The position numbers and the translations under genes are program-made. From a virus (taxonomy: Duplodnaviria > Heunggongvirae > Uroviricota > Caudoviricetes), in IMG/VR virus record IMGVR_UViG_3300021387_001477: 64,000 nt of DNA; one strand, written 5' to 3'. A model generated the notes under the pieces. The model was not told where the DNA came from, did not search any database, and saw only the letters and a list, made by a program, of their open reading frames with translations. Positions 11,913-17,423 of the stretch are shown here, one piece after another (positions within the stretch are counted from its first letter, which is position 1; the number at the start of each line of letters is the position of its first letter).

Positions 11913-12323
11913 TTATCTAATTCTTCTAAACCTAACTACGTACTTGCTTTCATCTCTCCTAACTTGGGCCCCTTTTTCTCGAATGAATCTAAGAATTGGA
12001 TGGGTAATCCAGTTAGGAACTAAATCCTCTCGTTTAGTATCACACTCTACTTTAAGATCTTTGCAATTCATAATCTTATCATACATTCTTGTCATTGCAT
12101 ATGCACTCCCCTCAAATTCGATTGTATTTTCATCAATCATTTTCATAGGCATAGCACATTCATATGCATCCCCAGCTAATAGATCAAATAATAACTTAAT
12201 CTTTGGCCCATAACTCGCACAATATGACGTGTAATACTGATCATAGAACTTTCTAATCTCAAATATCTTAGAAGTTGGTACATAGTTTGTATTTGAATCC
12301 GTTATTACTTTATGTTTCCACAA
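11913..12323 (-). CDS. DNA polymerase A, terminal exon (motif C region and C-terminus)
   Basis: CASYGPKIKLLFDLLAGDAYECAMPMKMIDE ~ T7 gp5 LQSAGALICKLW...AYMAWVHDE; ECDTKREDLVPNWITHP ~ T7 DTEGKMGPNWAICH; preceded by intron S-element and G. Confidence 0.65.
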   Translation of the reverse strand: MWKHKVITDSNTNYVPTSKIFEIRKFYDQYYTSYCASYGPKIKLLFDLLAGDAYECAMPMKMIDENTIEFEGSAYAMTRMYDKIMNCKDLKVECDTKREDLVPNWITHPILRFIREKGAQVRRDESKYVVRFRRIR

Positions 12324-12640
12324 AGACTAGACTATATCATTATCCATATTTCAGGATAGATCGCGCTTCGAGAGCAGGACTTTCACCTGATCTCTACTTC
12401 CTTTCAGAATAGTCGTTACACCTTCCATTTCTGGCTTGGCTCGGGATTAGCATGCATTTCTGTTTAGCTTTCCCCGATAGCAAGATTTCTCTCACACCCT
12501 ATATTTCTAGGTTCACGATCTTTTGCACTCTAGAATTACCCCTAGAGGCCACAATTTTACTTATGGACTACAATAATTGGTTGGAGTGGTTGTTTCCAGC
12601 CCTCTTGTATTGATTCACGTATATTATTAAAGAATCCTGA
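12324..12640 (-). mobile_element. group I intron in polA (canonical core); 5' boundary approximate
   Basis: CGGGGAAAGCTAAACAGAAATGCATGCTAATCCCGAGCCAAGCC ... GTGTAACGACTATTCTGAAAGG ... AATGATATAGTCTAGTC ... G| then exon. Confidence 0.55.
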
Positions 12641-12669
12641 GGCCATGATTGAGGCAGTGCCACCTTGTC

Positions 12670-12700
12670 GTTATTACTTTATGTTTCCACAAAGACTAGA
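12670..12700 (-). repeat. duplicate of the 31-nt intron-3'-tail/exon-start sequence CTAGTCTTTGTGGAAACATAAAGTAATAACG (other copy 12298-12328)
   Basis: Exact-looking repeat directly after a second intron S-element but not followed by coding sequence. Confidence 0.5.
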
Positions 12701-12925
12701 TCATATCATTATCCACATTCATGGATAGGCTGCGCTTCGGAATACAGAATTTCACTGTAAACCTACTCCTTTCGGATGATCGTTACACTTTCTCTATCTC
12801 TAGAGCTTAGCACGGGATTGGCATATTATTACTAACTTAGCTTTCCCCGTTAGCAAGATCTCTCACACCTAAGATTTCTTAGTTCACAGCCTGTTTCATA
12901 TAGGATTACTCCTATAAGCTACAAT
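12700..12925 (-). mobile_element. group I intron in polA (canonical core); boundaries approximate
   Basis: CGGGGAAAGCTAAGTTAGTAATAATATGCCAATCCCGTGCTAAGC ... GTGTAACGATCATCCGAAAGG ... AATGATATGATCTAGTC. Confidence 0.5.
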
Positions 12926-14241: not shown

Positions 14242-14498
14242 CAGTTATGTTATCCTAAGAGCTTTTTATCTCTTAGTTCTATAGATTCTTATTTATATTC
14301 TCTATAGCTCGGCGTACATTTTTAACTATCGCTAGTTATCGGACACTCTTGGAGATACTATATTTATTCAATCTCTACGCTCTACATTACTAGAGTGCCT
14401 TTCGAAATCACTCTAGTTAACTCGGTATTTAGATTCACACTATTTACCGATTTTGCCCGATTATACTCTATAGTGTTTCCACTATAGACGGCATTTCT
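14242..14498 (-). mobile_element. family-B small group I intron (copy 3)
   Basis: GTCTATAGTGGAAACACTATAGAGTATAATCG...CGGTAAATAGTGTGAATC...GTAGAGCGTAGAGATTGAATAAATATAGTATCTCC...GGATAACATAACTG. Confidence 0.6.
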
Positions 14499-14509
14499 AC
14501 CTCTGCACT

Positions 14510-14741
14510 ACTACATATTGTTCAGGAAATGTCGCTAATATTTCCCGGTTCTCTTATGAACTCCTGTATATTTCTATACAGATCAGACTATATCTTAATC
14601 TCCTTTTCGAGATTCCTACCATTTCCGTTCTGCTTAGAACGTACTCCCTCTCAGGATAGTCGTTGAAGGTTGACCATAAAGGCCCTTCCCTGCTGATTGT
14701 CTTCGGCATTATCCGGTCAGATGTCCCAGCAATTAAATAGG
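14510..14741 (-). mobile_element. group I intron (family C-like) following polA exon 1; may form a nested/tandem unit with the adjacent family-B intron
   Basis: GGGACATCTGACCGGATAATGCCGAAGAC ... CAACGACTATCCTGAGAGGGAGTACG ... GATTAAGATATAGTCTGATCTGTATAG... Confidence 0.45.
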
Positions 14742-17423
14742 TTAGTTTTTCTTGGGATCACTCCCAAGTGACACCAATAATTTATTTTCAATGTCAAAAT
14801 AAGTTTCAATAAAGTCTTCATCTACTATATTCCCATTCTCGTCAATATGATATGGCGTTCGAACACAATCTTTAAAATCTGCATGACTAACCAAGACATG
14901 GAACGCACTAGACCACCTCTTTGAACTCTTTGTGTTGACCTCATAATGACAAAAGCATTTATGTACTGCTCCTGGCTCATTAGGGTCAGCTTCACGAATA
15001 GGAATATGTTTTTCGTCCTCAATTACCCACTTTCCCTCTTTCAGCATTCCATCAATATAGGTCGATAGAACCTTTGAATATTTTTTGAAGAGCAGATAAT
15101 TGATGACCATTTTTCTCATAAAATAGAATCTGTTATCAAAGTCAGATTCATTGAAGATCTTTCCATAATCTTCATATTGATCAGAAACATACTTAAAGAA
15201 CTGTTCCTGAGCGATATATCCATTAAAGTTACTCCACACCTCTTTTACCTGATCACATCCTAAGTCATTATAGAATTGATCAAACAGGACATATACTTTT
15301 TCTGGATAACTGGTTTGCCCTACTGGAGTTCCTTGATAAAGTTTTGTATAGTTCTCTCCAAAATGAGCAAATCCATCTTCAACTGTTTTTATACCGAGTT
15401 GTTCATAATATTTTTCTGCGCCTGGAAGTTGCTGCGCACTTTCAAACATTGCAGCGAGATATGCAGACTCGGTAGGATACAGTTGAGCAAATTCCAAACA
15501 GATCTCATCATTTTCAATGGGGGACTTACACTTAAAGAAGTTATCCGATACATAATCTGAATAACTAATTAAATCCCATTTTTGTCCAAATGCATAGATC
15601 TCTTGAGGAATGTTTTGTATGTCATTAAGTTGATTCTTTGAGACTTTCATTAACTCATTGAACGCTCTTTCATAATATAGATACTTCTCAAGCTCTATGT
15701 GTTTGTCATTTATCTTTATTTTATCTAGTCCGATTATAGGAATTAGTTTATCTCCCAAGACCTGTTGGATCTTCTTCTTTCCGCCAATTCCTGAATCAAT
15801 CTTAGACTTCAATACTTTCTGACCTGTTTTCTTATAGAGTTTTATCATTCCTACCTCTTCCATTGCTTCTCTTAGGACTTTCATAAAATTGGTAGCAAAG
15901 TCTGGACCATACTTCATTAATAATTGGCCCTCGTTTATACCAAGTTCATAAGCATCCATAGTATCAACATTAGAAGTCAGAAGATACTTAGCTATTTCAG
16001 CCGGATTTCCATTAAAGAAGGTATTATCATGCAGCAGTTTCTTGGCAATATCAGAATAATTATCTATATTTGCCATCTTTTTCTTGTGCTTATCCATCTT
16101 TATTTTACACCTAGCTTCACTACAAAACGTAATGCTCCACGCAATCATCTCTTTCGACTTCTTTTCATACTCCAATCTAAATGGCTCGTCAATATATAGG
16201 CCACAATTATGAAGTCTGGCGCCCAATCTTGCATTATCCATAAAGGTTCTAATACAATCTTCAGAGAATTTATCTTTCTCTACCAGATGTATCATAAGAG
16301 TATAGAAAGCGTCAAGATTACAATAATACCCTAATATTTCTGATGGAACACACATAAATGAACTCTTGTCCCAGTATTCAAGTATTAAAGCTTCAAATTC
16401 ATTTATATAACTTGGGTATCTTGCGCATATCTCAGCCCATTCCGGAGTTGTTTTAAAATCAGAGGGAGTAATTTTTAGAACTTTCTTCTTATCTTTCTTA
16501 AGTTTCCCTACTTCTTCATAAAACATGCTTTCAACAAGATCTGAGATTCTGTCAAACTCGGTATCCCAGACAGTAGCCTGAAGTATCATTTGGGCTGACC
16601 ACTTTAAGGAATATTTCTTTAAGTGATTTCCCTCAATGACATTATAAACAGACGCATCTATAAGATTATATAGGTCTACTCCAAACATTCTATGAGATAC
16701 GGCCTGTTCATATTGCATATTATAAGTTACAAGATGACTCTGCCTATGATTCAAAAAATCTCCAAATCTTTTACATATCATTCCGTATTGTTCAGGACTA
16801 CATGTATGTCTAAGATCTGTAAAACTTATAAATCCTCCGAAGTTTTTTGTACACAGTGATGCCCCAGATATATCAAACCATACATCCAAAGCCATACCAG
16901 ATGCCTCGAAGTCAAAGCCTAGGTCCTCAGTCTCTGGAAGATTACAAAGCCAGTCTAAAAATTTCATTGCTCCAGTAAAATCATGAATAACTTTACTTTG
17001 GAACCAGGAAAAATCAACGGGCTGTGTAAATCCTGGAGACATAAAATCTCTAATTATGTCTGGAGAAGGAGGATCTAGAACTACCTTAACAAAAGCTCCG
17101 CCCTCTATACTTAACCTTCGAAGTTTGGACACATCGAAGTAATTCTCTGACCTAACCCCAAAGTGATAGAACTGGTTTAGATATCGATAAGGTTCTGCCC
17201 CCACCAACATAACAGCATCACTTGGGCCTAATGTCAGAAACTCTCTTTTTGCATCATCGGACATAGATTCAATATTCTCAACCGTAAAGATCTGAGATGA
17301 ATCCAGCCCTATTCCATAATAATCCACCACGTAATTTGGTGTTTCTTTAGCTGAAATTAATACAAATCGTTTGTTCATAAATCTAAATATTAATATACCT
17401 TTGAGCCGATATCTTACATACAC
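14742..17423 (-). CDS. DNA polymerase A exon 1 (N-terminal region incl. 3'-5' exonuclease-like domain, no polymerase motifs A/B/C)
   Basis: 893-aa ORF; GFDFEASGMALDVWFD exo-like block; last codons overlap the 20-nt hairpin repeat so true 5' splice site may lie slightly upstream of the stop. Confidence 0.65.
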   Translation of the reverse strand: MYVRYRLKGILIFRFMNKRFVLISAKETPNYVVDYYGIGLDSSQIFTVENIESMSDDAKREFLTLGPSDAVMLVGAEPYRYLNQFYHFGVRSENYFDVSKLRRLSIEGGAFVKVVLDPPSPDIIRDFMSPGFTQPVDFSWFQSKVIHDFTGAMKFLDWLCNLPETEDLGFDFEASGMALDVWFDISGASLCTKNFGGFISFTDLRHTCSPEQYGMICKRFGDFLNHRQSHLVTYNMQYEQAVSHRMFGVDLYNLIDASVYNVIEGNHLKKYSLKWSAQMILQATVWDTEFDRISDLVESMFYEEVGKLKKDKKKVLKITPSDFKTTPEWAEICARYPSYINEFEALILEYWDKSSFMCVPSEILGYYCNLDAFYTLMIHLVEKDKFSEDCIRTFMDNARLGARLHNCGLYIDEPFRLEYEKKSKEMIAWSITFCSEARCKIKMDKHKKKMANIDNYSDIAKKLLHDNTFFNGNPAEIAKYLLTSNVDTMDAYELGINEGQLLMKYGPDFATNFMKVLREAMEEVGMIKLYKKTGQKVLKSKIDSGIGGKKKIQQVLGDKLIPIIGLDKIKINDKHIELEKYLYYERAFNELMKVSKNQLNDIQNIPQEIYAFGQKWDLISYSDYVSDNFFKCKSPIENDEICLEFAQLYPTESAYLAAMFESAQQLPGAEKYYEQLGIKTVEDGFAHFGENYTKLYQGTPVGQTSYPEKVYVLFDQFYNDLGCDQVKEVWSNFNGYIAQEQFFKYVSDQYEDYGKIFNESDFDNRFYFMRKMVINYLLFKKYSKVLSTYIDGMLKEGKWVIEDEKHIPIREADPNEPGAVHKCFCHYEVNTKSSKRWSSAFHVLVSHADFKDCVRTPYHIDENGNIVDEDFIETYFDIENKLLVSLGSDPKKN

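Follow-up and report, generated by a model that had tools for sequence, protein, structure and literature searches.

Seven group I introns of three families divide the DNA polymerase A gene of a probable jumbo gut phage into eight exons

The 64,000-nt stretch of phage DNA analysed here (IMG/VR record IMGVR_UViG_3300021387_001477, hereafter the window) carries on its minus strand, at 17378-11913, a family A DNA polymerase gene (polA) that is divided into eight exons (E1-E8) by seven group I introns (I1-I7), which lack open reading frames (ORFs), measure 254-350 nt each and 1923 nt in sum, and fall into three families. We consider it very probable that this is one polymerase gene of a jumbo gut phage, from whose transcript the seven introns would be spliced to join the eight exons into the coding sequence of a 1180-residue product. 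Below we establish the anatomy of the gene, its exact junctions, the group I membership of the insertions and the colinearity of the exons with intron-less alleles. An earlier reading, made from the letters and ORFs of the window without database searches (the sequence-only reading), had proposed a PolA gene broken by at least seven group I introns of three families; matches to the Rfam group I model RF00028, the common fold and the identities within families bear this out, with seven introns and eight coding pieces. In the mechanism that we propose, a single minus-strand precursor of about 5.5 kb would undergo two-step, guanosine-initiated transesterification at each element, removing seven introns and joining eight exons.

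In the minus-strand ORF list the gene appears as an 893-codon ORF (17423-14742) followed by short ORFs with PolA-like peptides. Its components are given below, with slashes marking splice junctions and bit scores referring to RF00028, for which the gathering score is 50.

14791..17378, minus strand: polA exon 1, 2588 nt, amino acids 1-862 plus 2 nt, taken from the ORF list.
14790-14514, minus strand: intron 1, family A, 277 nt, no ORF, 78.9 bits; UGACAU pairs with GUGUCA in a P1 of 6 base pairs (bp), with a P10 of 7 bp and a terminal G; it splits an Ile codon (AT/T) within motif A.
14513-14499, minus strand: exon 2, a 15-nt micro-exon (T AGT AGT GCA GAG GT) encoding the motif A core (I)SSAE(V).
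14498-14242, minus strand: intron 2, family B, 257 nt, no ORF, undetected by Rfam; in P1, GGU(A) pairs with (U)GCC.
14241-14176, minus strand: exon 3, 66 nt, encoding KAAGFASGDPDLIDKFNKGEDI.
14175-13826, minus strand: intron 3, family A, 350 nt, no ORF, 59.1 bits; in P1, GAUAU pairs with GUAUC; located between motifs A and B, after GEDI.
13825-13743, minus strand: exon 4, 83 nt, encoding YIYTAKLYLGDKFDKLDKKDKKMWRKR plus the first base of a Phe codon, the start of motif B.
13742-13485, minus strand: intron 4, family B, 258 nt, no ORF, 28.7 bits, sub-gathering.
13484-13465, minus strand: exon 5, a 20-nt micro-exon (TC AAA ACT GTC TTC TTA GGT) encoding (F)KTVFLG of motif B.
13464-13211, minus strand: intron 5, family B, 254 nt, no ORF, 20.7 bits, sub-gathering.
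13210-12933, minus strand: exon 6, 278 nt, encoding VLYGLGKKSLAERLF...RLGVNLP(I), which covers the last part of motif B and the fingers/palm segment after it.
12932-12669, minus strand: intron 6, family C, 264 nt, no ORF, 53.6 bits; in P1, CUAU pairs with GUAG; it splits an Ile codon (AT/A) immediately ahead of the conserved QGG.
12668-12563, minus strand: exon 7, 106 nt, encoding QGGTASIMASGFFNNIRESIQEGWKQPLQPIIVVH, the first half of motif C.
12562-12300, minus strand: intron 7, family C, 263 nt, no ORF, 66.5 bits; in P1, CCAU pairs with GUGG; it sits between the His and Asp codons of motif C.
12299-11913, minus strand: exon 8, 387 nt including the stop codon, encoding DSNTNYVP... to the C-terminus.
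11874..11909, minus strand: an intrinsic-terminator-like hairpin of 15 pairs plus a T run, directly past the polA stop codon.

A 568-nt span of coding sequence takes in all seven introns, which sit at the best conserved catalytic motifs of the polymerase, and the ORF list holds no homing-endonuclease-sized ORF in any of them. The minus strand shows no terminator-like site between the polA exons. Splice junctions were set on RNA features: the exon ends in a U that pairs with a G in P1, and the intron has G as its last nucleotide. Junctions chosen by these RNA criteria gave a stop-free frame, an outcome well beyond what chance would produce; the sole change guided by homologues was to move the 3' end of intron 4 by 3 nt downstream. 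The end ...ACAG/ACG was rejected, as it yields WRKRYVKT (WRKRYVKTVFLG) where all homologues have WRKRFKT, and the end was placed after ACG. The motif B junction reads RKRF/KTVFLG, with the Phe codon split as T/TC, and not RKRSF as in the sequence-only reading. The coding fragments listed in that reading all exist on the minus strand; they run a few codons into the introns, however, and exons 2 and 7 had been missed. Given exons of 5 and 7 codons and the presence of canonical ribozyme features, we consider inteins, translational bypass and separate translation of the pieces implausible. Exon 1 is open from a GTG at 17423, the conserved start being the ATG at 17378 (homologues begin MN(K/R)R), and codes for an N-terminal region, for a putative 3'-5' exonuclease-like region, for the thumb and some of the fingers, and for the Asp of motif A (codon GAC, 14795-14793); unspliced read-through from the ATG would give 878 amino acids with the C-terminus ...FDIENKLLVSLGSDPKKN.

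Removal of the seven elements leaves a stop-free coding sequence of 3543 nt, encoding 1180 amino acids from the conserved Met. The check suggested by the sequence-only reading, a search of this conceptual product with the Pfam PolA model PF00476, returns 95.9 bits (cut-off 34.3) in one stretch that spans all seven junctions (amino acids 876-1090, in the numbering of the 1195/1196-residue form from GTG 17423). Exon 1 alone has no Pfam match, and motifs A, B and C are all recovered in the spliced product, as expected from the proposal that palm motifs lie downstream of the 893-codon ORF. Motif A, on whose presence that proposal had been made to depend, is found as YFD/ISSAEV/K, cut by I1 and I2; motif B is RKRF/KTVFLG/VLYG (RKRFKTVFLGVLYG), cut by I4 and I5; and motif C is VVH/DSN at the E7/E8 junction, cut by I7, so that the earlier choice of MIDE as motif C is superseded by the alignment to structures and homologues. 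The spliced motifs YFDISSAEVK, RKRFKTVFLGVLYG and VVHDS align to Taq and 9QHS and are conserved in homologues, and the junction-spanning peptides predicted for the product include YFDISSAEVK and FKTVFLGVLYGLGK.

The best solved-structure matches of the spliced protein are 9QHS (a large phage PolA), Taq, Bst and Klenow, and the first of these, the SP15-like PolA of phiLo/YerA41, leads with E 8e-16 for the spliced protein and 2e-21 for the family profile. It resembles the window polymerase in length (1142 vs 1180 amino acids) and in its large exonuclease-palm insertions; sequence identity is nevertheless low, and the N-terminal UDG domain that defines the SP15-like enzyme is undetected in the window protein by Pfam and profile search. 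Replicative phage PolA enzymes typically, though not invariably, have a 3'-5' exonuclease domain ahead of the polymerase. Here amino acids ~166-411, within an exon that lacks a Pfam match, are aligned with the exonuclease part of 9QHS by phmmer and by the family profile, and precomputed PF01612 matches exist on homologues P0052, P0058 and P0059. No introns are reported in the preprint on SP15-like PolA (bioRxiv 10.1101/2025.03.26.645540). At the N-terminus, around amino acids ~55-75 (17378-16900, minus strand), the stretch ...AVMLVGAEPYRYL...HFGV... resembles the LVGEAP/HSF motifs of the UDG domain of SP15-like polymerases (9QHS), reading MLVGAEP...HFGV against LVGEAP...HSF in phiLo; these positions are variable in the family consensus, and a UDG domain, looked for at the N-terminus, gained no support from Pfam or from the PDB profile search.

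The insertions are group I introns by their core, the P1 U.G pair, the terminal G (omega G) and colinear excision, and are predicted to self-splice in a guanosine-dependent manner. The Infernal check proposed in the sequence-only reading finds four of them with RF00028 above the gathering score (14800-14564, 14185-13876, 12942-12677 and 12572-12308; I1, I3, I6 and I7, 53.6-78.9 bits) and, in a focused scan, two that fall short of it (13752-13520, 28.7 bits; 13493-13248, 20.7 bits), whilst I2 is assigned by identity and a covarying fold. Pairwise identity defines family A (I1, I3), family B (I2, I4, I5) and family C (I6, I7). Aligned to intron 1, intron 3 contains additional DNA in the peripheral P5/P6 region, and I2 is 71-74% identical to I4 and I5 across its full length. 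The RNAalifold model of family B comprises P1, P2, P3, P4-P6, an extra hairpin between P7 and P3', P8, P9 and P9.1, and once the P7 pseudoknot is included, pairing extends to 97.6% of cells and compensatory changes are seen in 31 of 71 pairs, as against 0-2 in slid controls; P7 itself covaries, being GCGUA/UACGC in I2 and GCAUA/UAUGC in I4 and I5. The extra P7-P3' hairpin appears to resemble P7.1/P7.2 of subgroup IA, the usual group I subgroup in phages. A covariance model built from I2, I4 and I5 themselves (R1) scores I2 at 264 bits.

An exon-terminal U ahead of the intron and a terminal G are present in all seven polA introns, and the guides covary with their exons: CUAU:GUAG in I6 becomes CCAU:GUGG in I7, and a family B copy in a tRNA-Pro gene has GUU:GAC. 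This compensatory case supports GGU:GCC as the family B P1; the alternative AGGU:GUCU, which scored best in the search script, was rejected, as GUCU belongs to the covarying P2. Each micro-exon would serve two introns with non-overlapping nucleotides, as P10 partner of the intron upstream and P1 partner of the intron downstream: in exon 2, nucleotides 1-7 pair with the I1 guide and 13-15 with the I2 guide, and in exon 5, nucleotides 1-6 pair with the I4 guide and 17-20 with the I5 guide.

Colinearity with intron-less alleles supports the same junctions. Against GenBank phages, the region (megablast) and exon 1 (tblastn) gave trivial matches or none, and peptide patterns taken from the window itself retrieved nothing from IMG/VR; searching a database with exon 1 returned 314 homologues, and a profile-based scan of IMG/VR returned 45 polA loci (designated L004, L005 and so on where individual loci are named). 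Uninterrupted homologues of 1179-1180 amino acids are 74-77% identical to the window in exon 1, and against five of these the spliced product shows 0 gaps, its identity across the junction region being 87-89%. The closest relative, L009, is 97% identical in exon 1 and has introns only at the I2, I4, I5 and I7 sites, so that the window's E1/E2, E3/E4 and E6/E7 junctions align gapless at the nucleotide level to uninterrupted L009 DNA that lacks I1, I3 and I6; its spliced coding sequence is also 3543 nt, with 0 gaps against that of the window. Orthologous introns are retained in the clade: I4 copies in L009 and L014 are 89-96% identical, I5 copies in the same two loci 85-91% identical, L009 has an orthologous I7-site intron, and L009 and L005 each have an independent intron copy at the I2 site.

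These comparisons bear on the possibility that repeated intron copies led the metagenome assembler to insert extra ones. The metagenomic origin of the window and the repetition of intron families across it would allow such an artefact; the copies are, however, at most 81% identical to each other, a divergence too great for repeat collapse or expansion, the guide of each matches its own exon, the reading frame is exactly restored, and four introns occupy the same sites in the independently assembled L009. Exon 1 with its read-through into I1 is also identical in a Logan assembly and in ENA contigs of up to 318,918 bp, and we regard an assembly error as scarcely credible.

The genomes that differ in I1, I3 and I6 also differ around these sites. 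When the window is compared with L009, mean identity within ±45 nt is 83% at I1, I3 and I6 vs 94% at I4, I5 and I7 (three-site permutation P about 0.02), and drops to 65-77% in the 240 nt upstream of I6. The polymorphism of these three introns together with their diverged flanks points, as a weak test, to gain or loss at the DNA level with co-conversion, by recombination or homing, possibly aided by the free-standing HNH endonucleases described below.

Several observations weigh against the reading of polA as a functional, spliced gene. Three of the seven introns score below the Rfam threshold or are undetected; the family B P1 is very short (3-4 bp), and P10 is weak for I2 and I6; and in the polymerase Lys replaces the Arg of motif A and motif C has HDS instead of HDE, both substitutions being common to close homologues. 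Flank divergence was tested at three sites, and diverged tracts also occur at a distance from introns. Splicing in this genome is a prediction, as is the efficient excision, in the right order, of all seven ribozymes around the 15-nt and 20-nt exons. The three poor Rfam scores and the very short family B P1 helices would fit a decaying pseudogene, in which insertions inactivated the polymerase, splicing has been lost and the phage is replicated by another polymerase. Against decay stand a frame of 3543 nt without stop or frameshift once the seven elements are removed, the gapless 87-89% identity of the junction region to uninterrupted homologues, the compensatory changes retained in intron helices, the orthologous introns kept at the same sites in several genomes and the covariation of P1 guides with their exons, and we judge a pseudogene to be extremely unlikely.

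It is slightly less improbable, though still very unlikely, that only some of the elements are autonomous and that I2, I4 and I5 need a phage or host protein cofactor or another mechanism of removal. Many group I introns require maturases or chaperones in vivo, and the family B elements are those with RF00028 scores of 28.7 bits, 20.7 bits and no match, the 3-4 bp P1 and, for I2, the weak P10. They possess nonetheless a full, covariation-supported P1-P9 layout with P7 pseudoknot, 5' U.G and terminal G, and occur at no fewer than ten sites, tRNA genes included, always with a matching guide, which argues that the RNA itself specifies the splice sites; dependence on a protein would moreover leave the identity of the elements unchanged.

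Interruption of polA is common in this clade. Among the 120 best homologue clusters, 98 are interrupted and 22 uninterrupted, with the first break always at about amino acid 829, I1/I2, I3, I4/I5, I6 or I7; of the 45 IMG/VR loci, ~19 have uninterrupted genes and most others have 1-3 breaks. A distant relative, L047 (IMGVR_UViG_3300012979_000028, 6001-13660), has seven Rfam group I matches and 4.1 kb of inserted DNA in polA, including two insertions of >1.3 kb, with breaks at about amino acids 828, 864, 891, 926, 1019 and 1048, partly at sites empty in the window; seven introns are therefore extreme but not unique. ORFs within the large polA insertions of L004, L006 and L010 match no Pfam endonuclease family, giving only weak sub-threshold matches. 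In our scheme, mobile introns would probably have accumulated at conserved hot spots, the family B site lineages being old.

Family B provides the clearest view of this dispersal. Model R1 finds copies in polA of L004, L005, L008, L009, L012, L014 and L030 and another three outside polA in the window, and across the clade the family occupies at least ten different sites, tRNA genes included, each with a matching guide. Six of these sites are in polA, i.e. those of I2, I4 and I5 and the following three:

L004, 5625-5892: family B intron at FASG/DPE, after GGU; site empty in the window.
L008, 4880-5141: family B intron at KSAG/YAS, after GGU; site empty in the window.
L012, 10400-10662: family B intron at IQG/GTAS, after GGU; site empty in the window.

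Placement of the L012 copy at the I6 site of the window, occupied there by family C, was rejected; it lies 6 nt downstream, after QG. Every family B copy is preceded by GGU, or in one case by GUU with the compensating GAC guide, and the flanks are otherwise unlike. Such a GGU-only pattern would be expected from guide-directed site choice of the reverse-splicing type, and would equally be expected if only insertions able to form P1 survive. Copies group by site (85-96% identity across genomes at the I4 and I5 sites) and not by genome (67-80% between sites), which indicates that the dispersal is old. The spread of ORF-less introns to new sites has been attributed to reverse splicing (PMC1299323). 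As a tentative proposal, which we hold to be possible but doubtful, family B would be a proliferating ribozyme that chooses its targets by a 3-nt guide (GCC:GGU), possibly via reverse splicing, the seven-intron polA would be the visible end-point of an RNA-guided intron burst, and Rfam and ARAGORN would systematically under-count introns and tRNAs in phages of this kind.

Three free-standing HNH-type endonuclease genes lie in the window:

10386..11894, plus strand: 502 amino acids, convergent with polA and abutting its 3' end; Pfam HNH_3, 28.9 bits.
1818-2981, minus strand: free-standing HNH-type endonuclease gene.
22895-24136, plus strand: free-standing HNH-type endonuclease gene.

The first occupies the same position beside polA in L009 and L014 and is a candidate mobility helper. 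Besides this polA-convergent gene, one HNH gene adjoins a topoisomerase II gene and another adjoins split tRNA genes.

The window as a whole contains at least 13 group I introns, of which only four reach the Rfam gathering score; five are in tRNA genes, two of these in T-loops. Whole-window Rfam scans left I2, the three family B copies outside polA and the tRNA-Leu anticodon-loop intron unreported, and ARAGORN run on the raw window missed all four split tRNAs. The interrupted genes outside polA are the following:

26058-26391, plus strand: tRNA-Pro(UGG) gene with a family B intron at 26113-26372, in the T-loop between U55 and C56; R1 231 bits.
28867-29626, plus strand: tRNA-Leu(UAA) gene with two group I introns, 28901-29319 and 29352-29606.
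21928-22226, plus strand: tRNA-Met(CAU) gene with an anticodon-loop group I intron at 21964-22188; Rfam 48.3 bits, sub-gathering.
22297-22596, plus strand: tRNA-Arg(UCU) gene with an anticodon-loop group I intron at 22331-22554; Rfam 49.7 bits, sub-gathering.
~54810-56550, plus strand: split gene of about 500 amino acids with a family B intron at 55218-55455, after GGU.

For tRNA-Pro(UGG), ARAGORN recognises a canonical 74-nt tRNA only after in-silico removal of the intron, and with both introns taken out of tRNA-Leu(UAA) it recognises an 86-nt tRNA-Leu. The first tRNA-Leu intron (28901-29319) occupies the classic anticodon-loop site U34/A35 and scores 41.6 bits in a focused Rfam scan, and the second (29352-29606) is of family B and lies in the T-loop after U54 (R1 244 bits; Rfam 31.1 bits). 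tRNA-Met(CAU) and tRNA-Arg(UCU) are split by related introns, an alternative solution, Phe(GAA), existing for the latter tRNA. T-loop group I introns have been described for tmRNA (PMC11915505), and the group I introns of tRNA genes have been described, in the literature searched, from the anticodon loop only (bioRxiv 10.1101/2020.01.27.920355); in that literature we found no description of T-loop group I introns for tRNA genes. A 2014 review placed phage group I introns in protein genes, despite the many tRNA genes of phages (PMC3984707). The intron at 55218-55455 splits a Walker A-like motif, ...SCYTSYG/KTELI... (G/KT), and by this motif the gene may encode a helicase/ATPase-like protein, the joined product being without a Pfam match.

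Phage PolA genes with group I introns have been known from SPO1 onwards. Gene 31 of SPO1/SP82, Bastille, T7-like phages and cyanophage Pf-WMP3 provide cases in the same gene class, with introns in conserved polymerase motifs, and the SPO1-type introns share with those described here the U.G at the 5' splice site, the terminal G and associated HNH-type endonucleases. The known genes have one intron each, however, or at most "two or even three" (PMC11878797), and those introns average 802 nt and usually carry a homing endonuclease ORF, whereas here there are seven, of 254-350 nt and ORF-less, around exons of 15 and 20 nt. The sequence-only reading had called the intron density unusually high, and this holds against the published cases consulted, with two or three introns in Bastillevirinae polymerase genes (PMC11878797) and five fragments in a crAss-like capsid gene (PMC7886860); within the clade itself, L047 shows that it is not unique.

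The nearest parallels are the Jug phages of Bacteroides/Phocaeicola and the crAss-like Delta/Zeta phages, which according to the two reports (PMC12880540, PMC7886860) have genomes of hundreds of kb, many short and mostly ORF-less group I introns in essential genes and, like the window, many free-standing HNH endonucleases. Jug phages average 18.5 group I introns per genome, of about 206 nt; their terL is in 2-3 fragments and their DNA polymerase genes are "frequently split", and metatranscriptomes support splicing of 37 of 76 predicted group I introns (PMC12880540), which bears indirectly on the self-splicing predicted here. The polA relatives of the window are on contigs of 318-408 kb, the largest of them 398-408 kb, and adjoin cation ATPase genes; a copy of the first ORF of the window is present on ENA contigs as long as 318,918 bp, and other genes in the window include those for topoisomerase II, an RNA ligase-like protein and several HNH endonucleases. 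Large contigs and gene content together indicate a jumbo gut phage, probably related to Jug phages, in a window with no identified TerL or major capsid protein (MCP). Since intron-rich jumbo gut phages are already published, polA is an extreme new case of a known phenomenon. The available text of both reports gives no per-gene polymerase anatomy, the main text of PMC12880540 makes no mention of tRNA, and the exact anatomy, micro-exons and three-family composition described here are absent from the published text as far as it was available. Many group I introns with short exons between them also occur in single conserved genes of fungal mitochondria (cox1) and giant sulfur bacteria (16S rRNA; PMC3984707), but these hosts are organellar or cellular, whereas polA is the replicative polymerase gene of a virus under compact-coding pressure.

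The replicative polymerase would be obtainable only if each of the seven ribozymes is correctly excised, in two cases across an exon as short as 15 or 20 nt, so that polA constitutes a natural stress test for the co-transcriptional folding, splicing order and fidelity of group I introns, and splicing a possible gate on phage replication. The related genomes that differ in I1, I3 and I6 are ready donor/recipient pairs for studies of intron mobility. Gene callers report only an 878/893-residue "hypothetical protein" and a few short fragments, and as gene callers, Pfam searches of exon 1 and the Rfam threshold (4 of at least 13) all miss such structures, jumbo gut phages are probably underestimated in their intron loads, polymerase annotation and tRNA repertoires.

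Two further features of the window were recorded:

25594-25666, plus strand: tRNA with anticodon CUA, which reads UAG, labelled "Pyl" by ARAGORN, within a tRNA cluster.
31025-32992, plus strand: 655-residue ORF with a weak "lipoprotein" PHROG match, within a G+C-rich island.

The tRNA(CUA) at 25594-25666 is of suppressor type, and suppressor-type tRNAs have been described for crAss-like phages; recoding of UAG is not needed for polA, because the spliced gene has no in-frame stops. The island spans 31000-33000, with a G+C content of 0.46-0.49 vs about 0.35 elsewhere, and may be recently acquired DNA; a 429-residue ORF on the opposite strand lies wholly inside the region of the 655-residue ORF.

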